Shown: piece by piece, positions 3,330 to 30,268 of the stretch | Numbering within the stretch: position 1 is the stretch's first letter | Layout: each line of letters opens with the position of its first letter | Assembly (NCBI GenBank): GCA_049472355.1 | Contig: JBLIRP010000030.1 | Location: 1-38,130, forward strand | Source of the DNA: a bacterium | Lineage (GTDB): Bacteria; SZUA-182; DTGQ01; JAFGSM01 | Direction: 5' to 3' | Length of the DNA: 38,130 nt | Notes under the pieces: generated by a model | Told to the model about the DNA's origin: nothing | Seen by the model: the letters and a program-made list of their open reading frames with translations, nothing else | Database searches by the model: none | Translations under genes and position numbers: made by a program

Positions 3330-3526
3330 CTTTTCATACTCAATAGACAACCAAAGAAGAGAAATCTTTCACCTTGAAAATTTTCTCCTATGATTTTCAT
3401 ATTCCCTTGTGGGCGGAAGGCCCATGAATGTTTCACCTTGAAAATCCCTATGGGCCAAAAATCCCTACGGGCCATTTTCATGTGCCTGTGTGCGCCGAAG
3501 GCTCATGTGCCTTTCACCTTGAAAAT
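3330..3526. repeat. Three ~53-bp palindromic-ended repeat units (REP/MITE-like)
   Basis: TTTCACCTTGAAAAT occurs at 3367, 3431 and 3512. Units 3393-3445 and 3474-3526 are each 53 bp, begin ATTTTCA, end TGAAAAT and carry an internal GC hairpin. A degenerate unit lies at 3330-3381. Confidence 0.75.
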
Positions 3527-3825: not shown

Positions 3826-5211
3826 TCAGAAATAGAAAATCATGGAAGTATACAGATAATGCTGTGTAACATGTGATGAAATTTCCTCCCCAAGCATGCT
3901 TTCCACGTTTTTCTTTTCTCCGAATCGGTGTTGATAGGCAACATCAAAGGCGAAATTCTTATACTTTATGCCACTGCCCATACTCACCCCATAGAAATCG
4001 TCAACATTTCCTCTCGCAGGCTCAGGATCATAAAAAAAGCCCATTCTGACGGGAATGACAGTGTTTGCCCTGAATCTTAAATATTCGGCACCGATTCGAA
4101 TTTGGGTGGTGTTTTCGATATTGGCCTCAGACTTCATTTCCTTGTTGATAGGGCTTACTTCATCCCCTGAGGGGTAGACCAATGTGTATTGATCCCAGTG
4201 GGTACGATATATATCCAGTGAGGTGGAAAAACTATCTGAAAAATCTACAGAAATTCCCAGTCCATATGAAAGAGGCATTTTCAATGTAAGATCTTCTTGC
4301 ACAGTGGACTCTTGGTGAGTATTCAGATTTGGGTTTCCTGGGTATTGCTCATGGAAAATCCTGCGCTTTTCATGCTGGATATCCGCCTTGAAGGGGGTCT
4401 TAACAACTCCTCCGATACGAAAACGCCTCTCTGCACCCCAAAGCATATGATATCCGGAGGTGAAGAGAAAACCGAGGTTCATATTGAAGCCAGAAAAAAC
4501 GTATCGTTCATATACTTCGCTATGACTTATTTTTTCACTTCCCAGGTCAATTCCTTGGGCATCCTGAATATTCAGATTTTCCCATCCAGTGTCCAGGATA
4601 TCATGGTCCCAAAAATTAAATGTCAGACCAATGGAAAATGATGGCACTATCTGGAGAGCAAGCGCAGGGGAGATGGCATAGAGAGAACCCCTTTGATATT
4701 CATAATCGTTGTGGGAAACATCAACTAAAGCCATTGAATCCTGTTCCCTCCAGGCAGTCTGATTCTCCAGGGAAAACTCGTAAAGATGCTGATAATTGAT
4801 TGAAAAGACAATATTACGCTGAAGAAACATACAAGGGAATACAGCACTGAGATAATTTAGGTGAACAATATCCAGAGGGTGATCTTCAATATCCCCCTCC
4901 ATGCCTCCGGTTTGATAATTATTTCTGCCTGAATAATAAGAGCCAACGATTGAAAATTCCGGCCTTTTAAGACGGAGCAATGCCGAGGGATTCCAGGAAG
5001 CAGCAGTTGCATCATCAGCAACACTGATAAAGGCCCCTCCGATACCTAATGCCCGGGCGCCAGACCCTACCGGGTTAGGCGTTGCCGTCATATCCATATC
5101 AGGATAATCCGCATGAACAATCCCGTTCACAGCGGGATACACAAAATATATAGGCCTCGTCAGGATCAAGCTTATGAAAATCAACATGTATTTTTTAAAA
5201 ACGGGTTTCAA
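3826..5211 (-). CDS. OmpP1/FadL/TodX-family outer-membrane beta-barrel protein
   Basis: N-terminal GSGARALGIGGAFISVADDATAASWNPSAL plug motif, alternating beta-strand pattern and C-terminal Phe (IFYF). The start is uncertain: TTG 5211 has a GGGGAG SD and gives a K-rich n-region; ATG 5235 and 5187 are alternatives. Confidence 0.85.
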   Translation of the reverse strand: MKPVFKKYMLIFISLILTRPIYFVYPAVNGIVHADYPDMDMTATPNPVGSGARALGIGGAFISVADDATAASWNPSALLRLKRPEFSIVGSYYSGRNNYQTGGMEGDIEDHPLDIVHLNYLSAVFPCMFLQRNIVFSINYQHLYEFSLENQTAWREQDSMALVDVSHNDYEYQRGSLYAISPALALQIVPSFSIGLTFNFWDHDILDTGWENLNIQDAQGIDLGSEKISHSEVYERYVFSGFNMNLGFLFTSGYHMLWGAERRFRIGGVVKTPFKADIQHEKRRIFHEQYPGNPNLNTHQESTVQEDLTLKMPLSYGLGISVDFSDSFSTSLDIYRTHWDQYTLVYPSGDEVSPINKEMKSEANIENTTQIRIGAEYLRFRANTVIPVRMGFFYDPEPARGNVDDFYGVSMGSGIKYKNFAFDVAYQHRFGEKKNVESMLGEEISSHVTQHYLYTSMIFYF

Positions 5212-5212
5212 A

Positions 5213-6316
5213 TCACTCCCCACGACGTATGGCATCTATGAAGCAACCCTGCCTTTGCATGTGAACATCGAGCCCATAGGGATAGGAAAACGACATGATC
5301 GCAGCTATCGTCCCATTTGATTGACCATCAGAATCCCCTTTATCCCCATCTGTTAAAGGAACCATGACCTGTTCTCCATCGAGAATCTCAAAATCCGTTT
5401 CTTGCCAAGTATTGGTGCCTTGATAGGTATAAAAGCGGGCGGAAGGATATACCGTATCCGGCAAGCATAAAAAAATGCTAACGTGCTCATATGATCCGAT
5501 GCCCTCTACCTTAAAGCTCAAGGGGCTGTAAGGCATGTAATGATCCGTCATCAATAATGATGGAATGCCTGCTGTGTTTGGGTCTAAAAAAACCACTTCC
5601 CGAAAATATGGATTGACGTCCTCTAATGGAGCGATTTGCAGGATAATATTTTTCCGGAAAAGGGGATTGGGATCGTAACTCGCAAGAGGCATGCACACAA
5701 TCGCCTGATCTAAAAAGGCATCGCCCTCATCCTCATCACTCACACCATCCCCATCAGTATCTTTATCATCTATGCTGACATAGAGTGCATCAAAGAGAAT
5801 GGATGCATCGGCAGTACCAGTCCCCCTCAAGATTATTTGATTCTCTTCGAGAGATCCATTTCTTATATACCCCAGAGAAAAGGAATACATGGGGAAAGGG
5901 CGATACTCTATCCGTTGTGAACCAATAAAAAGATCATTCACCCCTTTAAAGATTTCCAAGTAGCATGTAATGTTGGGATCAGGTGAATGCACGGAACTCA
6001 TGACTGTCAGAGTGGGATTGCCGTAATCATGAGGATAGCAGAAATTAATCCTTACTTCTTGCGGCCTATTATTATCACAGCATGTATAAAGGGCACAAGG
6101 GAATCCTACCCAGTTGGGATCATGTTGTTCTATCAATGTACCCCAATCGGAAGGTACTTGATATTCTATTATCCCTTTTTGTATATCAAAAAATTCTCCG
6201 AAAGAGCCATCCACATTCCCTATTTGCCAAATGTATGTCATGGCCTGCGCTGGAGGAAAAACAGACAGTATGAAAAACAAGAGAAGGCAATAGCTGAGTG
6301 TCAACCGGTCTTTCAC
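5213..6316 (-). CDS. Secreted protein: CBM-like (PL4 domain III-like) N-terminus, Ca-binding acidic motif, choice-of-anchor-U-like domain, GCFI C-terminal motif
   Basis: Signal peptide ending AQA; WQIGNVDGSFGEF...ILFDAL resembles rhamnogalacturonan lyase domain III; DKDTDGDGVSDEDE; LTDGDKGDSDGQSNGTI; ends QGCFIDAIRRGE. Overlaps the upstream gene by 4 nt (ATGA). Confidence 0.65.
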   Translation of the reverse strand: MKDRLTLSYCLLLFFILSVFPPAQAMTYIWQIGNVDGSFGEFFDIQKGIIEYQVPSDWGTLIEQHDPNWVGFPCALYTCCDNNRPQEVRINFCYPHDYGNPTLTVMSSVHSPDPNITCYLEIFKGVNDLFIGSQRIEYRPFPMYSFSLGYIRNGSLEENQIILRGTGTADASILFDALYVSIDDKDTDGDGVSDEDEGDAFLDQAIVCMPLASYDPNPLFRKNIILQIAPLEDVNPYFREVVFLDPNTAGIPSLLMTDHYMPYSPLSFKVEGIGSYEHVSIFLCLPDTVYPSARFYTYQGTNTWQETDFEILDGEQVMVPLTDGDKGDSDGQSNGTIAAIMSFSYPYGLDVHMQRQGCFIDAIRRGE

Positions 6317-9300
6317 TGAGCACTGCCTTTTTTTCTATTAACGATGTAGACCTCATATGGTTTCAATCCATGATTTACCCCTGCAGGCCTTTCAAAAAAC
6401 CGGTAACTTGTTTCCCATGTTCCCCTCTCATTGTTTCTCATTCTAATCGATTCGATTTCCCAAAGATCGGGTTTTACAAGAATATCCAAAGAAGACGTAT
6501 CGGTAAAGAAATGGTTGAGATCAAAAAGCCGGGTTTCCATATAGTTAGGATCAAAGGTCTTATCCTTTGAATAACCGGACTTCAAGAACCCTTTAAGAGA
6601 CAGGATAGGATTATTCAGTTCAGTAAGGTCAAGAGATAATGTTCCCTTTCCAGAGGCATAAATGGCATTGAACGTATTCGACTTCATATGTTCAGAAGAT
6701 AGGTAAGGAGCTACCCAGGTCCCTGAGTCTGGGTCAAACCAAAGAACCTGATAGGAGATGTACCTGTTCGATATAATATTGGGCATCTCAACAATGGATG
6801 GGAGATAGAAAAGGTTTATTCCTTTGTTTAACGGTGCGGTAACAGTCGGATAAATAGGTGAGCTCTGAAAGAAAAGCACCTCATCCAGGTTACTGATTTG
6901 ATCCCCGTCAAAATCCCCGTTCGGCGAAAAATCCTGAGATGTATTCAGTGAAAGCCAAGGATGGTTCGCATCCCCTTGATACTGGGGATGACCGATTATA
7001 TCTTGATAATGTTCTATTTCCTCCATATATGACGTATCCTCAAGCATAAGCGGAATGGTATTCGTATCAAACATGCAATTCGAATCACTTAGATCCATTG
7101 TGATCTTGTTGAGTGAATCAGGAATAAGTTTGGCAGTGGTTTCAATCGGATCGCCTAAAAAATCTGTCCCTTCAAATATCTGAATAAGGAGATTCTCATA
7201 CTCGGTCCGTCCATTAAATTTATAGTAATAACGGTCAGGGGATGCAAACCGGTAATTGTTGGGATAGACAAAGTCAATCCCTCCAACCCGTTGGCATCGA
7301 ACCCCGGGGACCCTGTCTGCCGCGGGATCAATTACCTCAACAAGTAAGGTGGTATGCTTTTCCGCCTGAGGATCCAGGATACCTATGATATACTCTACCC
7401 CTTCGGGAGGATAGGTGGATGCCAGGGTAACGTTAAGCAGGTAATAACCGCTCGCCTTACATGAAAAGGCAAGATAGTTGTTGGCAACAAGATACTGGCC
7501 ATTTTCATGCATGACCCTTTCATTGGGATCAGAAAAAAGGGCAAGCTGGATGAAGTAGCCGTATTCGGAGAGATCCTGGGAATAAATTTCATAGACATGG
7601 CCTTCCAGTCCATAAAAATAGATCCAGTCCGTATATTCATGGTAGAAGGTATGCCTTATTGGTGGGGCATTGACAAAAATCTCATGCCGGGAGTCAAACA
7701 GGATATCGCCTGGATCATCATCCGGCTCGTACGGATCATCAATGATATTTGTCTCTATCCGGGCAATAGTCCTTTCCATCCATTCAGTCCATGTTTTCTC
7801 CATGTCTTCTTTGAGGCTGCCTTCCACCATAAAATAGATATTGTAATATTGATCCCCGGAGCACGCTGAAGCTGTAAGGATTAGGCCGGAATCACTAATT
7901 TGCACTGTGTTGGGATCAAAATCAACAATGAGGCTTTTCTGAAGGGAGCAGGAGGGCGAGGAGAGAATGGCCCATGCCCGGTCGATGATGGCATCAGGAT
8001 TAACAGCAAGTGAAAGCTGGTAATGTATTTCTCCAGGTATCCTTTCGGCCTTGGCTTGGCAGTCAGAGATAAGTGCGTAGTCCTCCCCATGGATGGCAGG
8101 CGTACCAAGGTAATAGTTTAAATAGCGGTTAATCGTCTGATAATTGATGAATTTCCCTTTTGGAAAAAGCCCTGGGTTTTGTCTTGTCAGTGATACTGCA
8201 TTTTGTGCCATGCGGAAGGCCTCGGAAATCGTGGCTCCAGAGAGCACCATTGAGAAAAAGAAGTTGGAAAAGCAGGGGAAATGCTTTCCTTCAAGGGGAA
8301 AGAAGAGATGTTCTTTATCGGTACTTGCCATACCAGACCATCTTTCATCCGTTTGGTATGGATCAAACAGGGATAGAAACTGGCTTGAATATGGGGCATC
8401 CATAAGAATGAGGAGTCGTTGGGCGGGATGCGAGGGGATCATCGCTCGGAGTTCTTGCGGACTAAGGATGATATTGTGATTGAGATAAAACCGAGGGATA
8501 TTATTCTCCTCGATCATGACCGTTCCGATAAGGTAGAGAAAGAGGATTTGCTCCTCGCCAAGGGGAGGAATGGCCGTTAGAATTTGGGAGAACGCTTCAA
8601 GATCCTCAAGATCCTCTCCTGCGATATGGAGGATATCCCCGTTTTGTATACTCAAACCCTTACTCTCAAGGATTGCCTGTGCTCGCATGATTTGCTCATG
8701 GAAATTTTTTCGGACATCTTCCTGCAAAATCTCAGTGGCGCTTGAGATAATCAGGGCCTTTGTTTTGTTCCGGACGGTATCTGCGATACCTGTGTGGTAG
8801 GAGGCAATCTTGGGAAGCGTGCTTTTGTCCTTGGCATAGAGGGTTATGAGGTAGTTGGCCTCACTGGGGCAAGGATCGGGAACGGTGATGGTATAATATC
8901 CACCATAAAGATACGCACTCGGATCTTCAATATTTGGAGAGAGAGGAAGAAAGGTGGCCTCGGTCACAGCCGCTCCATGGGTACTTCTCATGCTGTTTTG
9001 GGCATTTTCCACAATAGCCCAAACCTCCCTTATTCCAGTGAGAGAAAAAACATCAACCATTATATTCAGGGTTCCCAGTCTCCGGTAGGCCTCCACCTCG
9101 CCAAAAACCGGCCTGCTTTCATTGACGTAATAGATGGTGTCCTGATCCCATTGTTCGACAAGGTTTGGACCTGAGACGCAGGGGATTTGGTTTCCGGGAG
9201 GAAGGGATACTTCGGCAAATGTAAAGGCACTGTTGATGCTGTTGGTGAGGCGCCATTCATCAAAAAAGGGATAGGAGAAGGAGACCAGCCCCTGATTGAG

Positions 9301-12300
9301 ATAATAGGCAATTTGGTTGGGATCGGTGCTGGTGATAGCGATGAGCTTTTTGGACAGGCCAGGGTCCTGACGCTGTTCTATCTCTTCAATAAAACTCCCG
9401 GAATAACATGCATCATATAAAAGAAGGATCTTATCCTGGACCTTATCCGCTATGCCGGCAATCTGATCAATCAGATGATGGGCAGACAGTGATTCTTTTG
9501 GATTTAGGGTGAATGTACCTCGGCCTCCATGGTCTACAAGAAAAACAAATAGTTCTTTTATTCCACTAGCGGAGTTCCTGATCCGGGCAAGGGGAGAACA
9601 TCCAAGATATCCGCATGCATTAGGGTCGAACATGCCGTATGTTGGATAACCATCGATTTCATCGAATATCCCATTATCATCGAGGTCTTGGAGAACGTAG
9701 GGATTGTAATAGTGGATTTCATCCTTTGTGTACCCCATTGCACGAAGCGTCTTATAAGCGTGATTGGCAATGGTATTGGTGCTCTCCCAGAGATAATCCC
9801 CTGTGCCTTTATACCCAGCCGCAATTATGGCCATCATCCCAGTAGCAATATCATAGTTTGGGTCATCGACGGATACCTCTATGGTAATATTTGCTGAAAG
9901 GGGCAGGTTTGGATCAGCGTGTGCGATGAGGCTGCAACGGCCATTCTTCCTGGGAGCAACCGAGTATTCAACCGAGTATTGTTCTACGATTTTTTGTATA
10001 TCCTCCTCAGGGACCAGGATGGCATGGTCTGAGGAAAAGAAGGTGATTCCTATATCCTGGGATATGGGCCGGAAGGTGTGATCCAATCTCTCTCCGATGA
10101 GTGTAAGATCGCCGGGAATGGATCTGATAGTAAGGAATTCTACAGGGGTTATCCCGTCTTCTGAGAAATAGAGGCCACAGAATTGGCTCTCAGGTATGGC
10201 CATCTGGGGAACCTGGTTGTTGAAAGGCGGGCCTTCAAGCGCCCAGGTCTCAAGCTCATCTCTTGCAAAGAAGAACGCCTCCTTGAGGGATCCGATAATG
10301 TGTGAAGCGACCATGTCCGGGCTTACCTCAGGGATGGTGTTGGAACCAAGATGGGGGGCAAGCGCATCAATAAAGGAAGTGGTAAAGCAGTTGGGTATTT
10401 CCGGATCTGAAGGTGAAGGTTTGATATAGGAAGCCCCGTTGCCGGTTGCGGTGATTACGGTGATGTCGGGGCCGGTAAGCTCATCGATGAATGTGCCGGA
10501 GGCCGCAGATTCGATGATGACCACTACCTGACGGTTGGTGCCCGGGTGATACATGCCTTCATTATCGGTGTAGCCATGCTGGAACGTATTGATGGCATTC
10601 CTTAGCTCTTGTGCTGTGATGATCTCATCAGACATAATCAAAAAATGGTTTTCTGCAGCCTTGCCAATAAGGTAGATATAGAGGGGGCCTTCATTGGCGA
10701 TGTGATCCTGAGGCCAGGTTTTAATGATATTCTGTAATTCCTCAGAGGTGGGTGTTGAATCATCCACGATAAGTTGATTTGGAATACCGTCATCATCTAT
10801 GTCTTGTGGCGAATCAGGATTAAGGTAATAGAAGTCGCAGGCCATATAATCCTGCTTAACGAATGCATTAACTACATGTTTGGCAAGAGATTGAGTGAGG
10901 TTCCAGCGGGATGTGCTTGAGTCAGACTGGCCGGATGCTTTCAGCCTTGGTCTGGTACGTGTTTGGATGTGCTGTTGAGAAAGTGATTTATAATTGATGT
11001 CCCCACCTGCAGCAAGGATGAGGTTCCCCTTCCCTTTCGGGGAAGGGCCGATATGGATCTTGAATTTTAATAACCCGTTTGTTTTGTCCGCCACATAGGC
11101 ATAGCCATCGGTTACTGTTACTCCTGATGCATAACCGGGTGTATCACAGCAATCCCTGAGCACCGGCCTATATTTGTTCTTTACATCGATCACTGCCAGA
11201 CCACCTGCCCCATCTGCAATATAGGCATAGTCGCCGGATACCGTGACATCCACCATCTCACCGGGAAAGTCGTAGGTCCCAGTAATCACAGGCATATTCG
11301 GATAACGTATATCGATTACCTGCAAGCCGCTTATCTCATCGGCCACATAGGCGTAGTTGCCGGATACTGCAATACCCACTGCATCGACGTAGGCATCGCA
11401 GGTTCCCACGATCACGGGTGTATACGGGTCACCTATATCAATCACCTGGAGACCACTTCTTCCATCTGCCACATAGGCGCAGTCGCCGGATACTACGACA
11501 TCCATTGCACTCCCTGGGGTGTTGCAGGTTCCCGCAATTACAGGCATATTTGGGTCACTTAAATCGATCACCTGCAGGCCGCTTTTCCCGTCTGCCACAT
11601 AGGCGTAGTCGCCGGATACTGCAACATTTACTGCATCACCAGGGGTATTGCAGATCCCTGCGAGCATGGGGTCATTCTTGTTGCCTATGTTGATCACCAG
11701 CAGGCCACTTCTTTGACTTAACCTATCATAAACCGCCAAAAGGACGTAATCATCGAATACGGCAACCCCCTTTGCAAAGCCGTGGCTAGTATAGCTTCCC
11801 ACGAGTAGCGGCCCATTATTACTATCGATGTCAATTACCTGCAGGCCGCTTATCCCATATGCCACATAGGCGTAGTCGCCGGATACTGCAACCCCCTCTG
11901 CGGAACCAGGGCTATCACAACTTCCCACAAGCACTGGCCCATGCTTGTTGCTTATATCGATCACCTGCAGACCGATTCCCCCATCTGTCACATAGGCATA
12001 GTCTCCGAAAATAGTCCCCCCTCGTGCATAACCGGGGGTGGTACACCCTCCAACGATCACTGGCCTATGCTTGTTGCTTATGTCGATCACCAGCAGACCG
12101 CTATCCTCATCTATCACAAAGGCGTAATCATTTGATACCGTGATCCATCCCGCATAACCGAGGGTATCACAGCATCCCACGAGAACAGGATCATTCTTTT
12201 TGGTTATGTCGATTACCTGAAGACCATTCCCTCCATCTGCCACATAGGCATAATCGCCGGATATCGCCACCCCTCCGGCAATCCCGAGGGTATTACAGGT

Positions 12301-13890
12301 TCCCATGAGCACAGGGGTATTCTTTTTGGTTATGTCGATCACTTGAAGACCGCTCTCCCCGTCTGCCACATAGGCATAGTCTCCGGATACCGCCACACTC
12401 ATTGCAAGACCAGGTGTATCACAACTTCCGGCGCGGAAGGGAGCATTTTTTTGGCTTATGTCGATCACCTGCAGCCCACTTTCACTGTCTGCCACATAGG
12501 CATAGTCACCAGATACCGCCACCGCATGGGCAATACCAGGCGTATCACAATTTCCCGTGGGCTCTGGCTCTTTCTTGCTTATATCAATCACCTGCAGACC
12601 ACTCTCCCGGTCAGCTACATACGCATAGTCATCGAACACTGCAACGTCACATGCATAATCGTGGGTTTGACAAGCTCCTGAGATAGCTGGCATCGTTTTG
12701 TTGTTTACACCGATCACCTGCAGGCCGCTATTACCATCTGCCACATAGACGTAGTCACCGGATACAGCAACTCCCTTTTTTGAACCAGGTGTATCACAGG
12801 TTCCTATGAGGGCTGGCCCAATCTTCTCCTTTATGTCGATCACCTGCAGACCACTCTCCCAATCTGCTACAAAGGCGTAATCGCCGGATAATGCAATCCC
12901 TCCTGCAAAGCCTGGGGTATCACAGCTACAAACAATTTCAGGTTTATTCTTGTTATTGATATCGATCACCTGCAGGCCCTTTTTCTCATTACCCACATAT
13001 GCGTAATTGCCGGATATAACTACATCCAATGCATAACCAGGGGTTCTACACGTTCCTACGAGTACCGGCCTATCCTTGATGTTTATGTCGATAACCTGCA
13101 AGCCCTTTTCCCAATCTGCTACATAAACGTAGTCACCCGATATGGCAATCCCTCCCGCATAATCCCCTGTATCAATGCCTTTCACGAGCTTGGGGGCATT
13201 CTTGTCGTCAATGTTGATTACCTGGAGGCCTTTTTCCCAATCTGCTACATAGGCATAGTCACCAGAGACCGCGATTTGACATGCATAGCCAGGGGTATCA
13301 CTGGTTCCCACAGGCACCGGGGCATTTTTTTCGTGTATGTCGATCACCTGAAGGCCTTTTTCACCATCTGCTACATAGGCGTAGTCTCCGGATACTATTA
13401 CATACTCTGCAATACCAGGGGTATCACAATGTCCAAGATGATATGAAAATTTGGGATTGTTGATATTTCTTATGTATAATCCTTCCGATCCAACGGCAAG
13501 ATAGGCATAGATATCTTTATCATAACCACCTCGTTCATTAATCTGTATCGCTATATCAGTGCAATCACCTACAGGGACGAACGATTCTAAGGAAACTTCC
13601 AATGATCTATTGTTGGGATCATGGATGCCTGTATTGATACTAAAAACTGCCATTCCTTGCGAAGTAGCGCAAAAGGCATACAACATCCCTAGTTCGCCAT
13701 TCTCTTTAAATGCCTCGCTCTCTATAACTTCAACTGCACGAAAATAACCATGATTATTGCTCCAATGCCCAACAAGCCCTAACTGAACCATATCTTGCAA
13801 TGCAGCCTCTATGTATGAAATAAACAGAAGGGACAAAAAGAATACCAAGCAGAGTGAAATCAGACACACTTTATTTTTTTTAGTGAGCAT
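6313..13890 (-). CDS. Giant secreted protein with LVIVD-repeat beta-propellers, three tandem C13/legumain-like (clan CD) domains and PPC-like C-terminal region
   Basis: 2525-aa ORF with a signal peptide and about 20-21 repeats of ~43 aa (VSGDYAYVADGESGLQVIDI). The central domain has FLVDHGG and YDACYSGSF (His/Cys dyad). Two flanking homologous domains lack the dyad. C-terminal motifs include DPYEPDD...DWIYF (PPC-like) and DFDGDQISNLDE. Confidence 0.85.
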   Translation of the reverse strand: MLTKKNKVCLISLCLVFFLSLLFISYIEAALQDMVQLGLVGHWSNNHGYFRAVEVIESEAFKENGELGMLYAFCATSQGMAVFSINTGIHDPNNRSLEVSLESFVPVGDCTDIAIQINERGGYDKDIYAYLAVGSEGLYIRNINNPKFSYHLGHCDTPGIAEYVIVSGDYAYVADGEKGLQVIDIHEKNAPVPVGTSDTPGYACQIAVSGDYAYVADWEKGLQVINIDDKNAPKLVKGIDTGDYAGGIAISGDYVYVADWEKGLQVIDINIKDRPVLVGTCRTPGYALDVVISGNYAYVGNEKKGLQVIDINNKNKPEIVCSCDTPGFAGGIALSGDYAFVADWESGLQVIDIKEKIGPALIGTCDTPGSKKGVAVSGDYVYVADGNSGLQVIGVNNKTMPAISGACQTHDYACDVAVFDDYAYVADRESGLQVIDISKKEPEPTGNCDTPGIAHAVAVSGDYAYVADSESGLQVIDISQKNAPFRAGSCDTPGLAMSVAVSGDYAYVADGESGLQVIDITKKNTPVLMGTCNTLGIAGGVAISGDYAYVADGGNGLQVIDITKKNDPVLVGCCDTLGYAGWITVSNDYAFVIDEDSGLLVIDISNKHRPVIVGGCTTPGYARGGTIFGDYAYVTDGGIGLQVIDISNKHGPVLVGSCDSPGSAEGVAVSGDYAYVAYGISGLQVIDIDSNNGPLLVGSYTSHGFAKGVAVFDDYVLLAVYDRLSQRSGLLVINIGNKNDPMLAGICNTPGDAVNVAVSGDYAYVADGKSGLQVIDLSDPNMPVIAGTCNTPGSAMDVVVSGDCAYVADGRSGLQVIDIGDPYTPVIVGTCDAYVDAVGIAVSGNYAYVADEISGLQVIDIRYPNMPVITGTYDFPGEMVDVTVSGDYAYIADGAGGLAVIDVKNKYRPVLRDCCDTPGYASGVTVTDGYAYVADKTNGLLKFKIHIGPSPKGKGNLILAAGGDINYKSLSQQHIQTRTRPRLKASGQSDSSTSRWNLTQSLAKHVVNAFVKQDYMACDFYYLNPDSPQDIDDDGIPNQLIVDDSTPTSEELQNIIKTWPQDHIANEGPLYIYLIGKAAENHFLIMSDEIITAQELRNAINTFQHGYTDNEGMYHPGTNRQVVVIIESAASGTFIDELTGPDITVITATGNGASYIKPSPSDPEIPNCFTTSFIDALAPHLGSNTIPEVSPDMVASHIIGSLKEAFFFARDELETWALEGPPFNNQVPQMAIPESQFCGLYFSEDGITPVEFLTIRSIPGDLTLIGERLDHTFRPISQDIGITFFSSDHAILVPEEDIQKIVEQYSVEYSVAPRKNGRCSLIAHADPNLPLSANITIEVSVDDPNYDIATGMMAIIAAGYKGTGDYLWESTNTIANHAYKTLRAMGYTKDEIHYYNPYVLQDLDDNGIFDEIDGYPTYGMFDPNACGYLGCSPLARIRNSASGIKELFVFLVDHGGRGTFTLNPKESLSAHHLIDQIAGIADKVQDKILLLYDACYSGSFIEEIEQRQDPGLSKKLIAITSTDPNQIAYYLNQGLVSFSYPFFDEWRLTNSINSAFTFAEVSLPPGNQIPCVSGPNLVEQWDQDTIYYVNESRPVFGEVEAYRRLGTLNIMVDVFSLTGIREVWAIVENAQNSMRSTHGAAVTEATFLPLSPNIEDPSAYLYGGYYTITVPDPCPSEANYLITLYAKDKSTLPKIASYHTGIADTVRNKTKALIISSATEILQEDVRKNFHEQIMRAQAILESKGLSIQNGDILHIAGEDLEDLEAFSQILTAIPPLGEEQILFLYLIGTVMIEENNIPRFYLNHNIILSPQELRAMIPSHPAQRLLILMDAPYSSQFLSLFDPYQTDERWSGMASTDKEHLFFPLEGKHFPCFSNFFFSMVLSGATISEAFRMAQNAVSLTRQNPGLFPKGKFINYQTINRYLNYYLGTPAIHGEDYALISDCQAKAERIPGEIHYQLSLAVNPDAIIDRAWAILSSPSCSLQKSLIVDFDPNTVQISDSGLILTASACSGDQYYNIYFMVEGSLKEDMEKTWTEWMERTIARIETNIIDDPYEPDDDPGDILFDSRHEIFVNAPPIRHTFYHEYTDWIYFYGLEGHVYEIYSQDLSEYGYFIQLALFSDPNERVMHENGQYLVANNYLAFSCKASGYYLLNVTLASTYPPEGVEYIIGILDPQAEKHTTLLVEVIDPAADRVPGVRCQRVGGIDFVYPNNYRFASPDRYYYKFNGRTEYENLLIQIFEGTDFLGDPIETTAKLIPDSLNKITMDLSDSNCMFDTNTIPLMLEDTSYMEEIEHYQDIIGHPQYQGDANHPWLSLNTSQDFSPNGDFDGDQISNLDEVLFFQSSPIYPTVTAPLNKGINLFYLPSIVEMPNIISNRYISYQVLWFDPDSGTWVAPYLSSEHMKSNTFNAIYASGKGTLSLDLTELNNPILSLKGFLKSGYSKDKTFDPNYMETRLFDLNHFFTDTSSLDILVKPDLWEIESIRMRNNERGTWETSYRFFERPAGVNHGLKPYEVYIVNRKKGSAQ
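11050..13520 (-). repeat. Intragenic ~129-bp tandem repeats encoding LVIVD propeller blades
   Basis: Recurring plus-strand motifs gatcacctgcag, gccacataggc and ccggata at ~129-bp spacing. I counted 20 clear protein repeats plus one divergent N-terminal repeat. Confidence 0.85.
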
Positions 13891-14139: not shown

Positions 14140-16359
14140 TTACTTTGTGATTACATGGTCTCCGATTCGAACGCTATCCAATAGATCTCGTTGTGAAGGC
14201 AATGCCACAGAAAAATCCTCTGTCACTTTTTTTACCCGCGCCTCACCCAGAACCGTTTCATTTTTAATTTCCTCTACTTGTTGATATATAAGGACCTTCA
14301 TCCCCTCCTTTATAAGATCAGCTTTAGTCATACTCATTACCAAGAACTCTTTCGCTTCCCTATCTTTAGTTCTATCCCTATCAGGGGTCTTGTCTAAGAT
14401 CCTTCCCTGAACCACAGGAAATTTCTCTTTAAACCTTTGGGCAAGACCAGATAGAAGGTGGGACGCATCCTGGGCATTACTCCATCTATTATAGACATTT
14501 TCTACAGCCAAGATATTCCCGGTTTCCACCTCTACAAGCCTTGCAACAATATCGAGGCACCAATCCCTGCCATCCCACCATTGCTGGAAAGATCCCACGA
14601 GTAAGGTCTCAGCAAAAAGGAGATTCCCCAATCTCGATGCGGTGGCCTTATCAATACAATCGCTCGTAGAGAACATCAACTCGCTCATTACCGTGTCTAT
14701 CCTATCCCTCTCCACGATTTGGAAACGTTCTGTTCGGAAAAAGGCAAGATATAGCATCTCCCTCAAAAAATTGAGGGAACCGGGAGAAGGGGGTGCAAGG
14801 AGTGGCTGTTCTGCTTTATATATCAAAAAGGGCATAAGGGCAAGGCACCATCGGTTCTGTATCCTTTCAATCTCAGGGACACGATATTCTACTGTAATCC
14901 CTTTTTGGGCGATTCTTCCATCCTTATCTTCTGCCAGAATGGTGAGGCGGTTTTCCCCCTCCTTGAGCCCCTGAAAAAGACGGGTAAAATAGAAGAGTGT
15001 CCTTTCTCCATACCAGAAACGATGTAAGGCATGAAGTAGACCTGCATGCTCCTTGCTGGATAAGAGGGGTTCCTCATTAATCCATAATCCGCTAATCTCA
15101 CAGGCTGATTCGATCCTCCCCTGGATCACGACAATTGGTTGAAAGACTATGCTCGAATAATGTTCGATAAAGATTTTGGGGATTTTTTCGTATGAGGGGT
15201 TGTGTGGCACGAATGAATTATTTGCCGCAATCCTGAAGAGGGGTACATCTTCCTGCCCTGCGGTATTATTATCCGAATTGAAATATTCCGATAAGGGTCC
15301 AGAAGATATAGATTCTTTGTTCTCCCATATCATGGCAAGGTCACCTTTGGTGACATTACCCGCAAGGTCGCGTGCCCAAAAACCCGGTGCATCGTTTGGA
15401 GATATTTCAAGACGAAACTCCCTCAACCTCTCTCCCCTTTGGAAGGGAATCTCCCGTGCACCTATCGTGAATGCATCGAGTCCGCCAGAATCAAAGATGA
15501 GACATTTGATCATCCTCACTTTCCCTGATTGTAGTTCCGCAGATGCATGATCGGTATAGATGCCGGAGGGAGCATCAGGGCCGATAATCACGGTGGGGCC
15601 CTGCTGATCGAGTTCAACCAAAAAATCCTTCTGCTGTTCATTTCCTGCAAGGTCGATCACCTTGCAGCAAATCTGATTTTCACCCGGCTTAAGGGAAATC
15701 CTCTTTTTGAAGGAGATTACAGGCATTGCAAGGTCAATAAATAGTGGTTGATCATTGATTATGACTGTGGATACGAAATAATCGTCTATCGCTTCACCTG
15801 TAACCTCATACATGGAGGCATTGGTATGGAATACAGGCAATCTTCCCTCGTCGTGTTTATGGAACCGGATAGCGGGAGGGGTATGATCCAATCCCCTTTC
15901 TTCGAGCCATCTTTGGCGTGCTTGGTTGAGATAATATTTTGCCCTGCCTGAATCCGCCATTTCAAGGGATAATGAAAGTTCTTCTATAGCCCTATTCGGA
16001 TCCCCCTGATGCAGATAAATGCACCCCAGTTCCCTGTGGGGGAAATACTCTTCCAGAACATGCATCCCATAGCTTCTGGCGTACCACTGGTCCTTATGTC
16101 TCTGGCTGATTGCTTGATAAAACTGATCGATTGCCTGATCCCAACACTCACCTTGGGCATAAGAAAGGCCTCTCCTGTAACAGCTATCCCAGTCGTTGCT
16201 CATGATCCAATCATTGGTGATTCCGAAAACGCGTCCATCTCTGACACAAGGCTCGGGCGTTTGCACGACGCAACTGGTGAGCAGAAGGATACAGAGGATA
16301 CATAAGACACCCATAAAGAGGAAGGGAAGGCAGGACAAGGATGATTCGGGCCTCATCAT
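14140..16359 (-). CDS. Lipoprotein with TPR, Ig-like and CsgG/HfaB-like domains
   Basis: Lipobox LLTSC; TPR helices (YRRGLSYAQGECWDQAIDQF, RELGCIYLHQGDPNRAIEEL); beta-sandwich repeats ending DLAGN; CsgG-like FQIVERDRIDTVMSEL...ARLVEVETGNIL; FlgT-C-like tail. Confidence 0.75.
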   Translation of the reverse strand: MMRPESSLSCLPFLFMGVLCILCILLLTSCVVQTPEPCVRDGRVFGITNDWIMSNDWDSCYRRGLSYAQGECWDQAIDQFYQAISQRHKDQWYARSYGMHVLEEYFPHRELGCIYLHQGDPNRAIEELSLSLEMADSGRAKYYLNQARQRWLEERGLDHTPPAIRFHKHDEGRLPVFHTNASMYEVTGEAIDDYFVSTVIINDQPLFIDLAMPVISFKKRISLKPGENQICCKVIDLAGNEQQKDFLVELDQQGPTVIIGPDAPSGIYTDHASAELQSGKVRMIKCLIFDSGGLDAFTIGAREIPFQRGERLREFRLEISPNDAPGFWARDLAGNVTKGDLAMIWENKESISSGPLSEYFNSDNNTAGQEDVPLFRIAANNSFVPHNPSYEKIPKIFIEHYSSIVFQPIVVIQGRIESACEISGLWINEEPLLSSKEHAGLLHALHRFWYGERTLFYFTRLFQGLKEGENRLTILAEDKDGRIAQKGITVEYRVPEIERIQNRWCLALMPFLIYKAEQPLLAPPSPGSLNFLREMLYLAFFRTERFQIVERDRIDTVMSELMFSTSDCIDKATASRLGNLLFAETLLVGSFQQWWDGRDWCLDIVARLVEVETGNILAVENVYNRWSNAQDASHLLSGLAQRFKEKFPVVQGRILDKTPDRDRTKDREAKEFLVMSMTKADLIKEGMKVLIYQQVEEIKNETVLGEARVKKVTEDFSVALPSQRDLLDSVRIGDHVITK

Positions 16360-18396
16360 CTACCTCACGTTAGATGCGCCCAAAGAGTGTACGACTTCCC
16401 GGCCAAGATTTTGGCTGACCACCTTCAAGTCATCACCATCCCTTACAGAGGCCTCAGCCATAGCTCTAATGACAGATGTTTCAGTCTCCACACAGCGAAC
16501 AAAGATTTTACTTTCATTGTGCATAAAAGGGAGTGAAATGAGATGATCTCCAGGTAGTGCCATGACAAAGAGAATTCCCTTTGCACCGAAAAGTTTTCCT
16601 ATGGCAAACTTAACTTGGTTTTCGGTTAGATACGAGGTCGCCCGTTCAAGTTCCTCAAGAACAAAGTCCAGTCTCTCCCGTTCCACAACCACAAAATCGG
16701 TTTGGTGCATCCAGAATCGATGGAACTCTTCTATGAAATGTCTCGTTAATGTCTGAGTATGACCATTCATTCTCTTCTCGTGCATGGCAGGAACAATGCA
16801 TATGGTATATGGGCCATGAGAAGATGCTATCGGATGGAGAGCCTCCTTATATCGCTTATTAAGCATCCCTTGAATCTGCTGCACGATTTGCCATTTCTTT
16901 TGTTCCCATTCATGATCAATAGGGGGTATCCCCCTTTGACCGTCATCAGGATGGTAGAGGTTGGGGCCAACCTTGGATATGACGTAAAAAATTAGTGTAA
17001 GCGACACCAGTCCACCCATCACTGCTCCCATCCATTTCAGCCTCCACTTCACACTACTTCCTTTTCGCACCGAGGGAGGGGCTTGAGAGGTGCCGAGAGG
17101 GGTCTCTCCGGAGGGTTCACTTGCACCCTCCGGGATGCCGGTGCGGCTGGCAGCATATCCCTGAAGGATCACCCCTTCAGGTTCTTGCCGCACCTGTCTT
17201 CTCCGGCTCGAATCATCTTTCCTTTTCCGGCCTTTCTCGGGCTCCTCCCCTCCGGTATCACCTTCCTTCTCCTCTCGTCGTTCCAGATAGCAGATGGTGG
17301 GATCGCCATAGAGCATGTAGTACGCCCAGATCAGATTGTCCCTGCCATATTCATCAATCAGCCGGAGCCTTGCCCTGCGAAGGCAATCACCTATTGAACT
17401 GCGCTCCATCATGAGCTGATAGAAGGAAAGGGCAAGGGCAAAACTGGCTGGGTCGCTGATATCCTGCAGTGTACCGATGTAGTGTTGCACCCCGCTTCGC
17501 AGGAATACATTGACAAGATCAAAGGCGTGATGGGTAAACCGGTGAGGTTCCGTTGTGGACCACTCCGCTGTCTGCCCGCTGCGGCAGGCGTTTGAGAAGA
17601 TGAGCGAGGGAAAGGCCTTCCTCCCCCCGCTGATACGCATGATATCCTGAGCGGTCAACAGGCCGTCCTCAAGATACCATCCGCTTGAACCGGGATCCTC
17701 CTGGTTGTAAACGGCATGCCCTGCATAGTGCAGGATGTCGAATCTGGGGAGACGGCGAATGATCTTTTTGGAATCGATGTTGGTGGTCTCGAGATATGTC
17801 TCGAGGGGACCACCCCATGCTTCAAGCCTCTGGGAAAGGAGAAGCCCTTCCTCGTATGATGCCGGAAGGTCCTTTCGGGGATCAGCTACAATCAGTATCC
17901 TGATCGTATCCCTGAAATCCCGGTCCCTTCCCCTTACCATCGGGTGGGAGGTGGTAACCAGCCGCCCAATATTGTAGCGAAGGCAGAAAAACTCCTCTCC
18001 ATCGTACAGGATCTCCCACGGTATACCCACCAGGGAATCATCGATGAGCAGAAAGAGATTCCTTGATTCGGTCGAAGCAAGGCGTTCCTTTATCGGCAGC
18101 GGGAGCAGGGAATCATAGAGATGCTGGCCTATCTCCTCTAATCGCCCGGCCTTGCCCATGGCCCCCTTTTCGGATGAATGATCGGATGCTTGAAGCAGGG
18201 AAAGGGATTCCTGTACCAGGGATTGGATGTCTGCGGAGCAGATACGACCACGGACATACTGCTGCAAGGTGATCTCTTCTCCCGGGTCTTTCTCCTCAAG
18301 GGTTATCAGCAATGATTCCTCCGTGCCCTCCCTAAGAACCCTGAGATAAACCGATCTCTCGGAGGTATTCCTGCATTGAAAACGCCCGGGCGTCAT
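16360..18396 (-). CDS. CHAT (caspase HetF-associated) protease with transmembrane helix and C-terminal CsgG-like domain
   Basis: Motifs IPWEIL, ILIVADP, LHYAGHA (His), FSNACRSG (Cys) and WAYYMLYGDP. No signal peptide. A charged linker leads to TM WMGAVMGGLVSLTLIFYVI and then FVVVERERLDFVLEELE...VRCVETETS. Confidence 0.9.
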   Translation of the reverse strand: MTPGRFQCRNTSERSVYLRVLREGTEESLLITLEEKDPGEEITLQQYVRGRICSADIQSLVQESLSLLQASDHSSEKGAMGKAGRLEEIGQHLYDSLLPLPIKERLASTESRNLFLLIDDSLVGIPWEILYDGEEFFCLRYNIGRLVTTSHPMVRGRDRDFRDTIRILIVADPRKDLPASYEEGLLLSQRLEAWGGPLETYLETTNIDSKKIIRRLPRFDILHYAGHAVYNQEDPGSSGWYLEDGLLTAQDIMRISGGRKAFPSLIFSNACRSGQTAEWSTTEPHRFTHHAFDLVNVFLRSGVQHYIGTLQDISDPASFALALSFYQLMMERSSIGDCLRRARLRLIDEYGRDNLIWAYYMLYGDPTICYLERREEKEGDTGGEEPEKGRKRKDDSSRRRQVRQEPEGVILQGYAASRTGIPEGASEPSGETPLGTSQAPPSVRKGSSVKWRLKWMGAVMGGLVSLTLIFYVISKVGPNLYHPDDGQRGIPPIDHEWEQKKWQIVQQIQGMLNKRYKEALHPIASSHGPYTICIVPAMHEKRMNGHTQTLTRHFIEEFHRFWMHQTDFVVVERERLDFVLEELERATSYLTENQVKFAIGKLFGAKGILFVMALPGDHLISLPFMHNESKIFVRCVETETSVIRAMAEASVRDGDDLKVVSQNLGREVVHSLGASNVR

Positions 18397-19133
18397 TTCA
18401 TCATCCCCTCCGTGATATCCATCAATACCAGCGCGATCAGGTGCCCCCCCGAGCGTATTCTCACTTCATAGTCACCGGGTGCAATCCCCTTGAACTGAAC
18501 GATATCGTGCACCAGGGGATGCGAACTGAGTACCCGGTCTTTCTGGACAAGATCCACCTTGATCGGTCCGGCCTCCGGATAGTCAGGGGGTGCTGCAACC
18601 TCACAGCTCAGTACGCAGATCCCCTCCCCGTCCTTTTCAAGATAAATCGTGATCGTATATCCCTGAATCCTCTTTGAGATGGGTGGAGGAGCTGTTTCCC
18701 TTGTATCGAGGGTGCTGCGGACCGGGACAGGCTCTCCGGCCTTCTTGAATGGAAAAGTCATCCCGTCGGTATCCTGTAAGACCAGGTTCCCATGAACCCA
18801 GGCCAGGGAAATCTTCAGGGCATCCGTAACCGCACCGATACCGGAGATGACCTTTGTGCTGACCGCATCGCACACCCGGGAGAGGCTGTCCGTTTCCGGA
18901 TTTTCCATTTGTTCCACCCGCGCAGTGATAATAAGTAGCCGGCGACAGACGGGACACCGGGAGAAATGATCCTCTGCCTTTTCTCTCTCAGAGGGTGTCA
19001 GGCGGGATGCCAGATAATCCGCAATGGTTTCCTCGGAAAGGCAGCCCCCTTCCCTCTCCTTTTCGGGGGCACTCTCCCCTTCCATCCTGGATAACGCATC
19101 ATGCATCAATCTATCGAACTTCTTATCTTTCAT
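18393..19133 (-). CDS. Zinc-finger (zf-HC2/ZAS) anti-sigma factor with C-terminal beta-sandwich
   Basis: CLSEETIADYL...EDHFSRCPVC (Hx3Cx2C). Lies directly downstream of an ECF sigma and has a GAGAGG SD. Overlaps the CHAT gene by ATGA. Confidence 0.85.
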   Translation of the reverse strand: MKDKKFDRLMHDALSRMEGESAPEKEREGGCLSEETIADYLASRLTPSEREKAEDHFSRCPVCRRLLIITARVEQMENPETDSLSRVCDAVSTKVISGIGAVTDALKISLAWVHGNLVLQDTDGMTFPFKKAGEPVPVRSTLDTRETAPPPISKRIQGYTITIYLEKDGEGICVLSCEVAAPPDYPEAGPIKVDLVQKDRVLSSHPLVHDIVQFKGIAPGDYEVRIRSGGHLIALVLMDITEGMMK

Positions 19134-19271
19134 GTTTGTCCTCTCTGATCATTCTTCCCGAATACTACTCCTCCCAAGGGTGAAAGGACAGCAGTGAGGG
19201 ATTCAAACCCTCCATGGCCGATTCGTGAACACGATATCTCATGAATAACAGACCAGTCAATGATTAATTTA

Positions 19272-19913
19272 TTACACCTCTATTTCTCCTCCCTTAATCT
19301 GGGTGAATTGTTTCAACAAGCGCCTTATCTTTTTCTGTATCCTATGCTTTAGCACATAGAGATTTCGAGGAGGAAGATTCATAATAGGGGAGATCTCATT
19401 AAATGACATCTCGTCAAGCCAATGGAATGTTACAAAAAGCCGCTCCCGGCTCGTCAGATTCTCTCGTATGATCTTCATAACCCTTTCCAACTCCTCCTGC
19501 TCAGCAATATGCCTTTCCACGTTTTCTATCTCCTTATTGACCGGGTGAGCGTTCTCACCCAATGGTACATACCGTGATGTACTTCTGATCAATGCATCGA
19601 GAAAATTGAGGGTGGCATTGACAGTGCAGGTTCTCAGCCAAGTTGCCAGGGTGCATCCATTGTCTCCGCGATAGCACCTCAATTTGTTACACTCATTCTC
19701 AAGAAAGGAAGACCAGATGGCCTGCTCACAATCCCTCATATCCTCCGGTTTTAGGTCAATCCAATGTACACGGGCAGTCTGGAATATAGTTGCGTTGATA
19801 AGACGGGAAAACCGTTCATGGAAGGCCTCCCAGGCCCATTCCTTGCCGTTTAAACACTCCTTCAAAAGCTCTCCATTCGGAATAGTTTGGTTCCGGTCGA
19901 GTTCCATCGGCAT
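19272..19913 (-). CDS. ECF-type sigma-70 family RNA polymerase sigma factor
   Basis: Region-2-like ELLKECLNGKEWAWEAFHERF...TLATWLRTCTVNATLNFL and region-4 LTSRERLFVTFHWLDEMSFNEISPIMNL...KHRIQKKIR. The likely start is 19913 or 19907; the track's extension to 20099 looks non-coding. Confidence 0.85.
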   Translation of the reverse strand: MPMELDRNQTIPNGELLKECLNGKEWAWEAFHERFSRLINATIFQTARVHWIDLKPEDMRDCEQAIWSSFLENECNKLRCYRGDNGCTLATWLRTCTVNATLNFLDALIRSTSRYVPLGENAHPVNKEIENVERHIAEQEELERVMKIIRENLTSRERLFVTFHWLDEMSFNEISPIMNLPPRNLYVLKHRIQKKIRRLLKQFTQIKGGEIEV

Positions 19914-22671: not shown

Positions 22672-22724
22672 GGGTTCTGAGAGACAAAAACAGCTTGGGC
22701 CCTCGTGGCCCACAAGGAGGAACC

Positions 22725-25490: not shown

Positions 25491-25532
25491 ATTCGTATTT
25501 ATCTTCTTTAATGCTTATGCTACCATGTCGGC

Positions 25533-26974: not shown

Positions 26975-26978
26975 TGTT

Positions 26979-30259: not shown

Positions 30260-30268
30260 GAATTCTCC

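Follow-up and report, generated by a model that had tools for sequence, protein, structure and literature searches.

A predicted trans-envelope switch in which a CHAT protease receptor controls an ECF sigma factor through a soluble zinc anti-sigma protein

The four-gene locus

The stretch of DNA analyzed here (contig JBLIRP010000030.1 of assembly GCA_049472355.1, 38,130 nucleotides, hereafter the window) comes from a bacterium of the GTDB lineage SZUA-182; DTGQ01; JAFGSM01. Four co-oriented genes on its minus strand, spanning 14140..19913, encode a sigma factor of the extracytoplasmic function (ECF) type, an anti-sigma protein, a CHAT protein and a lipoprotein. Together they probably form a trans-envelope, protease-gated ECF switch, in which the CHAT protein acts as a receptor that cuts the anti-sigma protein after Arg139. 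The gene set, topology signals, catalytic dyad and CsgG-like domains shared by receptor and lipoprotein can be read directly from the sequence, while the cut itself is predicted. A preliminary description of this DNA had recognized the four co-oriented genes, and the open reading frames (ORFs) confirm them with their limits. The signs of translational coupling that it reported for the last three genes are also present: the anti-sigma and CHAT genes overlap in ATGA at 18393-18396, and the TAG stop of the CHAT gene is directly followed by the ATG of the lipoprotein gene (16360/16359). The module has the following features.

19272..19913 (or 19907), minus strand: ECF-type sigma factor, 213 aa, or 211 aa from the second ATG (TIGR02937, profile matches, homologue alignment)
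18393..19133, minus strand: soluble anti-sigma protein, 246 aa (zinc anti-sigma profile matches, model)
18945..19043, minus strand: CHCC zinc ligands C31, H56, C60 and C63 of the anti-sigma protein (among 64 homologues, C31, C60 and C63 invariant, H56 at least 90%)
18714..18731, minus strand: P-V-P-V-R139-S, predicted CHAT cleavage site after Arg139 (Arg conservation, strict motif counts, low-confidence loop)
16360..18396, minus strand: CHAT protease receptor, 678 aa, with protease (1 to ~370), linker, transmembrane (TM) helix and periplasmic CsgG-like domain (Pfam, model, topology, HHalign)
17584..17718, minus strand: catalytic dyad H227 (HYAGH) and C271 (SNAC) (invariant in 64 paired homologues; Cys in 102/102)
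17452..17454, minus strand: D315, predicted S1 aspartate for a P1 Arg, at Cys+44 (Asp in 63/64 by alignment, 99/102 by motif)
16966..17034, minus strand: single TM helix 455-477, N-terminus in (TM prediction, positive-inside rule)
16363..16809, minus strand: periplasmic CsgG/LpoB-like domain of the CHAT protein (HHalign to the lipoprotein C-terminus)
14140..16359, minus strand: lipoprotein, 739 aa, with Cys30, TPR, Ig-like repeats, CsgG-like and FlgT_C-like parts; predicted partner of the CHAT receptor (Pfam, lipobox, HHalign)

The sigma protein is an ECF factor that consists of sigma2 and sigma4 only, over ~200 aa. It scores 45.2 bits against TIGR02937 (sigma70-ECF; cut-off 42.9) and has no match in the Pfam scan; its profile matches AlgU, RpoE and SigW chains (best E 1e-18), AlgU and RpoE over their full length. 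The second ATG at 19907 suits the N-termini of homologues better than that at 19913, and a mechanically called start at 20099 was rejected as over-extended. Upstream, a ~110-nt palindromic element (window 20277-20390) has a similar counterpart upstream of the L055 sigma gene and is possibly a small mobile or REP-like repeat.

Conservation of the gene neighborhood

The source genome (3.49 Mb, 87.5% complete) holds three copies of the module, on C73, C117 and C138, and one further lipoprotein truncated by a contig end. Three orphan sigma factors of the same family, close to the C138 type, have no adjacent anti-sigma gene (C93:26183-26836, C90:4576-5208, C47:3248-3901). For comparison, CHAT loci were taken from relatives (40) and from a genome collection (the best 80 of 412), and together with the three own copies they give 102 distinct loci; the collection loci come from Thermodesulfobacteriota, Nitrospirota, Nitrospinota, delta proteobacteria, Omnitrophota and the isolate Desulfonema magnum. 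Among the 75 loci with at least 1.8 kb upstream, the anti-sigma gene lies directly upstream of CHAT in 62, and both sigma and anti-sigma genes are present in 57. Where 4 kb downstream were also available (54 loci), a lipoprotein is found in 43, an outer-membrane barrel in 34 and a C13-like cargo protein in 13; all four module genes occur in 34.

Since these loci had been selected by CHAT similarity, the reverse test was run from the anti-sigma protein. Its profile gives 20 matches in 121 Omnitrophota genomes, 10 full-length and 10 to the zinc domain only, and all nine new full-length proteins of this held-out set have a sigma gene upstream and a CHAT gene directly downstream. In D. magnum (strain 4be13), four anti-sigma genes, of which one belonged to the training set, each have sigma and lipoprotein genes upstream and CHAT downstream; one of the four modules lies at about 602.3-608.4 kb of NZ_CP061800.1. 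Within the own phylum a match is found in 17 of 20 genomes, two of which hold a different, TM-type anti-sigma protein. A word-index search with the same profile matched only nine proteins. The four-gene arrangement exceeds chance, and the gene order, whose absence elsewhere would have spoken against the reading by the preliminary description's own account, is conserved. Identities of anti-sigma and CHAT proteins are correlated (Spearman 0.70) and the nearest neighbor is the same in 40/64, for which kinship alone suffices as an explanation. As a separate observation, L196 and L197 pair a long ECF sigma factor (330-340 aa) with a different TM-type zinc anti-sigma protein, and no CHAT protein of the family was found in those two genomes.

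The anti-sigma protein and its predicted cleavage site

The anti-sigma gene adjoins the sigma gene, and its product carries a C..H-x3-C-x2-C domain (C31...H56-x3-C60-x2-C63); the two are a predicted ECF/class I zinc anti-sigma pair. The protein scores 20.4 bits against Pfam zf-HC2, slightly below the cut-off of 22.2; at the level of the family, the profile finds zinc anti-sigma chains, namely 3hug_B, RsiW, DdvA, ChrR and RsrA. No TM segment is predicted. The AlphaFold model (pLDDT 81) comprises helices (3-103), a β-hairpin (105-122), a low-confidence loop (132-151) that holds R139, and a β-sandwich (152-242) that matches generic Ig/Fn3 sandwiches only, with a best Z of 8.2.

R139 is the predicted site of an Arg-specific CHAT cut, between R139 and S140. 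In a family with a mean column identity of ~25%, Arg is present in all 78 homologues that have a residue in that column (79 aligned). Because aligners may draw any Arg into a loop column, an alignment-light motif count was used. The strict motif [VAILT]R[GS] occurs within the 21 residues before the K-x-F strand in 63/78 proteins (shuffle mean 6.9, max 16; Lys control 0/78), compared with 5.5% of other windows, and in 22/29 after reduction to <35% identity. The held-out Omnitrophota proteins have the Arg in 9/9 and the strict motif in 7/9, and all three held-out D. magnum proteins keep the Arg. The loop Arg is lost in L186, where the anti-sigma gene has no adjacent CHAT gene and the sigma factor is degenerate.

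Two rearranged forms were encountered. L062:3214-4449 encodes an anti-sigma protein with most of a sigma factor fused C-terminally, between a normal sigma gene and a normal anti-sigma gene; this could be a duplication-fusion, or a self-inhibited sigma factor releasable by a cut at the Arg loop. L051:709-1110 and L054:12009-12410 are half anti-sigma genes (Arg loop and Ig domain) that precede cyclase-CHAT genes and have neither a zinc domain nor an adjacent sigma gene.

The CHAT protease receptor

The CHAT domain (PF12770, residues 88-365) scores 108.3 bits over a cut-off of 24. As the preliminary description had stated, the His/Cys dyad is intact: HYAGH holds H223 and the catalytic H227, and SNAC holds C271. 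The closest structural match of the modeled residues 1-378 (pLDDT 88.5) is separase (5fc2_B, Z 26.2, rmsd 3.6, 312 aligned), followed by Csx29 (7y9x_B, Z 23.4, rmsd 3.7, 306 aligned), gingipain R (Z 21.2), DdvA (8rot, 19.7) and SAVED-CHAT (8tl0, 18.6). By sequence, the CHAT profile finds nothing in the PDB at E 0.001, and only SAVED-CHAT at 0.0016.

Proteolytic activity and a specificity for Arg at P1 are predicted from D315 and R139. In separase, D2151 binds the P1 Arg, and Csx29 of S. brodae has K670 instead, 43 residues after the catalytic C627 (PMC9729208). The equivalence of D315 with D2151 is drawn from its spacing to the catalytic Cys, not from superposition. HetF, another CHAT protease, cuts its substrate PatU3 between R117 and S118 (PMC9457339). 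Given D315 and this precedent, an Arg-specific enzyme and a V-R-S/G site, cut after the Arg, in the product of the neighboring gene would fit each other.

The single TM helix has five K/R before it and one after it, and there is no signal peptide. Among homologues, the TM helix follows the protease domain in 96/98, K/R are more numerous before it in 64 and after it in 11, and a signal-like N-terminus is seen in 0/89. The protease domain is predicted to be cytoplasmic because of this placement, the positive-inside bias and the lack of a signal peptide.

The strict motif is also enriched in the CHAT proteins' own linkers, in 40/96 between CHAT and TM (shuffle mean 11.5, max 20) and in 21/50 after a fused cyclase (mean 6.8, max 14), which suggests self-processing as well; the linker of the window's CHAT protein contains none. 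A broader motif, [VAILT]R[GSAHT], is found in 71/96 and 40/50, respectively; it was chosen post hoc, and therefore only the strict counts were used.

The wider family is varied in architecture. Cyclase-CHAT, TIR-CHAT and CHASE2-CHAT proteins are among those scanned (50 of 150), and in P0011, P0014, P0047, P0038 and P0010 a membrane CHAT protein is joined to a class III cyclase, TIR, CHASE2, trypsin/DUF4384 or FGE-sulfatase domain. Cyclase fusions account for 36/75 loci, and the label switches eight times on a quick CHAT tree. Mutual exclusion of cyclase and sigma outputs, to which the first 40 loci had pointed, was ruled out, as 25 of these 36 loci have both sigma and anti-sigma genes. Fusion of the anti-sigma protein to CHAT, suspected from N-terminal extensions, was likewise dismissed: none of 150 proteins gave an anti-sigma match, and what extends the N-termini is a class III cyclase or a TIR domain.

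The lipoprotein and the envelope arm

The lipoprotein has the lipobox LLTS-C30. A strict lipobox rule is passed by 32/63 homologues, and several from Nitrospirota show no Cys, so lipidation is not universal in the family. HHalign relates the periplasmic part of the CHAT family to the C-terminal CsgG-like/FlgT_C-like region of the lipoprotein (99.6%, 208 columns); the window's CHAT protein is without the FlgT_C part. The CsgG label that the preliminary description gave to the CHAT C-terminus finds no Pfam match in the window copy and holds at the level of the family, through this profile homology and CsgG Pfam matches in 9/28 members. Neither protein has the build of the curli channel CsgG, a stand-alone pore lipoprotein of ~270 aa encoded in a csg operon: the match is partial (profile 41-99 of 210) and lies inside multidomain proteins, and no csg genes were found by the Pfam scan of window proteins.

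The occurrence of the lipoprotein is tied to the shared domain. It is present in 43/48 loci where CHAT has the CsgG-like domain and in 0/6 where CHAT is without it; all six of the latter keep the anti-sigma gene, and one (L080) is a split gene. Trypsin, DUF4384 and TPR domains serve as alternative outer domains. The CHAT protein can be pictured as a receptor in which inputs and outputs alike are exchangeable. Rings are formed by CsgG/FlgT-type domains, and class III cyclases act as dimers. Clustering would be the step that activates the protease. Candidate signals include damage to the envelope, foreign proteases, and how far cargo and barrel have been assembled.

Promoters and regulon

Two predicted promoters and one predicted target gene lie in the window.

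19248..19276, minus strand: predicted cognate ECF promoter at the sigma stop codon, TGTAATAAA-13-GGTCTGT, which would drive the anti-sigma, CHAT and lipoprotein genes (family motif)
3343..3371, minus strand: predicted target promoter of the window's sigma factor, TGAAAGATT-13-TGTCTAT (14.0 bits; the -35 and -10 boxes recur in L034)
1..3258, minus strand: secreted β-helix/PKD protein, predicted target gene, continuing past the window edge (promoter site, domain scan)

GTCTAT is found upstream of anti-sigma genes in 44/84 regions (2.4 expected). With a two-block matrix, TGTAAGAAA-13/14-CGTCTAT, leave-one-out scores exceed 11 bits in 53/71 regions and in 1.5% of shuffles, which supports a bipartite ECF promoter at the family level. 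The site is present in 53 of 60 sigma/anti-sigma pairs, and 47 of these sites lie between -40 and +60 relative to the sigma stop codon; the -35 box often overlaps the last sigma codons and is wholly non-coding in L033, L035 and L126. Promoter variants track sigma clusters: the C138 type has CATAAG(G/T)GA, the C117 type TGTAAGGAA..TCTCTAT, the window's cluster TGAAAG and another cluster GGGAAA. The window's sigma factor is predicted to read TG(T/A)AAGAAA-13-(C/T)GTCTAT. The site at 3343-3371 precedes the β-helix gene at 3258, and the same boxes precede a secreted gene with a similar N-terminus in L034 of the nearest relative. Immediately upstream of this site lie two 57-nt direct repeats of 81% identity (window 3393-3530).

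At the genome level, RRGAAA-N13-15-CGTCTAT has 15 sites in the source genome and two in the reversed control; in other genomes of the genus the corresponding counts are 39 vs 8, 14 vs 2, 13 vs 5 and 13 vs 4, and most other genera show no enrichment. Signal-peptide proteins follow 8 of the 10 sites that have a downstream ORF (background 717/2340), and these proteins include two alpha-2-macroglobulins and one LVIVD protein (21 proteins scanned). Two relatives have retained the site that precedes the macroglobulin gene on C119. Genus-wide GGGAAA-N14/15-CGTCTAT sites (C119:11269, C120:12529, C87:29664, C86:4557, C113:984, C10:9597, C102:12997, C102:14427) appear to form an ECF-type regulon before secreted proteins, likely under a sigma factor of the L067-L071 type, whose gene possibly belongs to the module that is truncated where C48 ends.

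Other searches gave no signal. The strict promoter pattern has one match and one control match in D. magnum. Upstream of the sigma gene no motif exceeds shuffles and only TTGACA/TATAAT-like words occur, so autoregulation at that position was rejected. Generic promoter and terminator scans remained at chance level, and no common motif was found upstream of the barrel, lipoprotein and C13 genes.

Proposed mechanism and alternatives

We propose that the anti-sigma protein would bind the sigma factor through its CHCC domain, by homology with RsiW, ChrR and DdvA. The cytoplasmic CHAT domain would be switched on by a periplasmic cue that probably reaches it through the lipoprotein; as homology and co-occurrence suggest, lipoprotein and receptor would meet through their homologous CsgG-like domains and thereby cluster the protease. 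The predicted Arg-specific cut between R139 and S140 would remove the Ig-like sandwich and may destabilize the sigma-binding half, as proposed for Csx30. Once free, the sigma factor would direct transcription of its own module and of genes that encode secreted surface proteins. The receptors of many relatives carry an adenylate cyclase as well.

If this is correct, an envelope signal reaches an ECF sigma factor by way of a membrane-spanning protease rather than a membrane-spanning anti-sigma protein, and intramembrane proteolysis is not needed because the protease itself spans the membrane. It would also give bacterial separase-like proteases an everyday signaling role and possibly provide an orthogonal protease-sigma switch. 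The module brings a named substrate, a scissile bond (R139-S140) and a specificity residue (D315), both predicted, a predicted promoter, and a host that is in culture and has four copies.

Several observations weigh against this reading. The anti-sigma gene is not directly upstream in 13/75 CHAT loci, nine of which are cyclase fusions. At least five full-length anti-sigma proteins of the own phylum (L183-186, L188) have no adjacent CHAT gene, in genomes that hold other CHAT paralogues, and four of them still keep the Arg. The counts include related sequences and are not independent. An exposed conserved Arg fits an inhibitor or docking loop too, and the cut alone need not free the sigma factor, because it falls ~35 residues past the helical zinc domain; the same question of release after a distal cut stands for Csx30 (PMC10028731). 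As to the promoter, the window's own copy at 19248-19276 is weak (7.8 bits leave-one-out), though in register with its sigma cluster, and the GGGAAA-type sites match another sigma cluster that was not found in the source assembly. Whole-genome counts with the position weight matrix do not exceed column-permuted controls (59 vs 25-78), and the modest matrix-based enrichment of secreted genes (20/441 vs 16/898, p 0.006) was equaled by one of six permuted matrices.

It is conceivable, if unlikely, that the R139 loop serves as bait or for docking, with the anti-sigma protein restraining the protease in the manner of securin or PCi, or being captured in a partner switch, while the real cuts fall in the CHAT linkers and free CHAT from the membrane or release the cyclase. 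The strict-motif enrichment in both kinds of linker agrees with this, as do the half anti-sigma genes of L051 and L054, which encode the Arg loop and Ig domain alone, and the precedent of PCi, which inhibits PCaspase and is cut by it (bioRxiv 2023.06.23.546230). The Arg is universal in the anti-sigma proteins, however, whereas the linker motif is partial and its strict form is missing from the window's linker; moreover, the model shows a flexible loop and the residues next to the Arg vary, which resembles a substrate more than it does a rigid loop of an inhibitor. Improbable, in our view, is release of the sigma factor by the zinc protein on a cytoplasmic redox or zinc cue, as for RsrA or ChrR, with CHAT, lipoprotein and barrel as mere regulon outputs. 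Soluble zinc anti-sigma proteins do respond mostly to cytoplasmic oxidative signals (PMC8999054), the predicted promoter places CHAT and lipoprotein under sigma control, and both anti-sigma genes without adjacent CHAT and the three orphan sigma factors occur; this would leave unexplained the invariant Arg loop and the matching S1 Asp, and CHAT proteins with other outer domains (trypsin, DUF4384, TPR) keep the same anti-sigma protein in 6/6 loci.

The best-studied CHAT/sigma systems belong to defense (PMC11506125, PMC10028731), and some receptors carry TIR domains (P0014, P0073). An anti-phage or cell-suicide module, in which envelope damage activates CHAT, the cell is killed or arrested and the sigma factor induces defense genes, nevertheless seems very improbable here: PADLOC has no match among the 10 window proteins, no Cas1 was found in the 87.5% complete assembly, and the neighbors and predicted targets are secreted adhesin-like proteins and alpha-2-macroglobulins. 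The module may still serve as a defense against predators or foreign proteases at the envelope. ECF and CHAT genes are common in general, but a chance clustering of unrelated genes has next to no probability and is refuted by a gene order kept across several phyla. The protease-gated switch is accordingly the reading we favor. Its extension to a widespread class of receptor caspases is tentative and more doubtful: single-pass proteins with a CsgG-like or swappable periplasmic domain clustered by a lipoprotein and an Arg-specific separase-like protease in the cytoplasm, which might cut V/T-R-G/S after the Arg in three places (anti-sigma protein, own tether and fused cyclase linker), and whose sigma and cAMP outputs might build a protective coat made up of adhesins and of alpha-2-macroglobulins as protease traps.

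Comparison with known systems

The module would operate along the lines of the Craspase circuit and of the mechanism suggested for DdvA, but it belongs to neither system. In Myxococcus xanthus, DdvS/DdvA (PMC11506125, PMC6061681; PDB 8ROT, 8RLZ) likewise combine an ECF sigma factor, a CHCC anti-sigma domain and CHAT, with CHAT-dependent release proposed. The anti-sigma profile matches 8rlz (E 7e-4), the CHAT model resembles 8rot as given above, and the DdvS promoter, GTAA-n16-CGT (PMC6061681), is similar to the GTAA-n17-CGT of the four-gene module. DdvA is, by these accounts, one transmembrane chain (ZASD, TM and periplasmic TPR-CHAT) subject to RseP-type intramembrane proteolysis, and controls a CBASS-CRISPR island. 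In contrast, the module has a separate soluble anti-sigma protein without TM, a cytoplasm-facing CHAT that precedes the TM helix and has no signal peptide, a CsgG-like outer domain, and in addition the lipoprotein and barrel; the window gave no PADLOC match and no CRISPR array.

With the type III-E Craspase circuit of Csx29, Csx30 and CASP-sigma (PMC10028731, PMC9729208) the module shares a cytoplasmic separase-fold CHAT beside a soluble sigma inhibitor and an ECF sigma factor, as well as a cut predicted C-terminal to the sigma-binding part of the inhibitor. Unlike Craspase, which has Cas7-11 and a CRISPR array in its locus, the module has no Cas7-11/crRNA, and the gene content and repeats of the window include no CRISPR array; its protease is membrane-anchored, its inhibitor a zinc ZAS-Ig protein, and its P1 residue is predicted to be Arg, the S1 Asp being retained; Csx29, by contrast, cleaves after Met or Leu, with Lys in the S1 position (PMC9729208, PMC10028731). 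Neither the anti-sigma profile nor its model matches Csx30, although a Csx30/Csx31-type family outside the reference lists is possible. HetF is a CRISPR-independent CHAT protease that also cuts a regulatory protein after Arg; its substrate PatU3 from Anabaena is an inhibitor of division and differentiation, not an anti-sigma protein (PMC9457339), and the window's CHAT scores 14.5 bits against the HetF model NF045509 (cut-off 1200).

ECF54 (PMC7826278 supplement; PMC8999054) resembles the module in having a conserved CHAT neighbor, a β-sandwich (carboxypeptidase-regulatory-like) protein at +1 and proposed proteolytic control. It is 100% actinobacterial, with the promoter GTATCAG/CTCC and with TPR-CHAT and subtilase, and these sources recognize no anti-sigma protein and describe no membrane receptor or lipoprotein; hosts and promoter motif differ from ours. 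The SAVED-CHAT/PCaspase/PCc-sigma/PCi system of Haliangium (bioRxiv 10.1101/2023.06.23.546230) also has a CHAT activated by oligomerization and a sigma factor with its inhibitor in the operon, but is triggered by cyclic oligoadenylate from type III-B CRISPR and runs a two-protease cascade in which the sigma factor itself is cut. RseA/DegS/RseP and RsiW share the envelope cue, anti-sigma proteolysis and ECF release; there the anti-sigma protein is the membrane-spanning partner, cleaved first on the outside and then inside the membrane, whereas in the module the protease would span it and the anti-sigma protein is soluble.

Published CHAT-sigma links are either CRISPR-gated (Csx29) or hypothetical (DdvA self-cleavage, ECF54). 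A literature search found no published description of the four-gene module, although coverage of subscription papers and supplements was partial and a prior mention is possible. The preliminary description had read the module as CRISPR-independent and trans-envelope. That reading is partly supported by independent indications, namely the predicted cut site, the Arg-type S1 Asp, the domain-tied co-occurrence of the lipoprotein and the predicted cognate promoter, and no CRISPR link was seen; it had missed DdvA/DdvS, the nearest system in the literature, and the association of ECF54 with CHAT, and the unit is wider than its four genes.

Downstream cargo and other genes of the window

The conserved unit exceeds four genes and includes the barrel, secreted cargo and, optionally, a fused cyclase. 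Downstream of the lipoprotein gene the window encodes the following.

6313..13890, minus strand: secreted cargo protein, 2525 aa, with 18 LVIVD repeats and three caspase-fold (C13-like) domains (Pfam; homologues in 13/54 module loci)
5213..6316, minus strand: secreted choice-of-anchor U protein, cargo (NF041766, over cut-off)
3826..5235, minus strand: FadL/PorV/BamG-like outer-membrane barrel, a regular module member (PF03349; NF053685 and NF033709 below cut-off; 34/54 loci)

Only the middle caspase-fold domain of the 2525-aa protein keeps both H and C (DHG...DAC); the protein represents a second clan CD protease, on the membrane's outer face. The C-terminal GCFI motif of the choice-of-anchor U protein (window 5213-5260, minus strand) presumably resembles CFI-box sorting signals.

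The remaining genes lie on the other side of the module. A divergent HtpX-like M48 protease with an N-terminal zinc ribbon (window 20593-23282, plus strand) overlaps a YbjQ-family gene and is not a conserved neighbor. It is followed by a secreted-looking protein with a long Gly-Gly-Tyr-Pro-Tyr tract, encoded by 18/21-nt repeats, and a chagasin-type I42 cysteine protease inhibitor domain (23599-24600, minus strand), and by an exopolysaccharide export cluster with Wzy_C, TPR, Wzc, Wza and a β-barrel porin (24903-32702). GAATGTC/GAATGTA heptamer repeats are dispersed at 26934-26974, 31103-31232 and 32830-32917, and a 58-nt inverted pair of 90% identity flanks 31380-32702.

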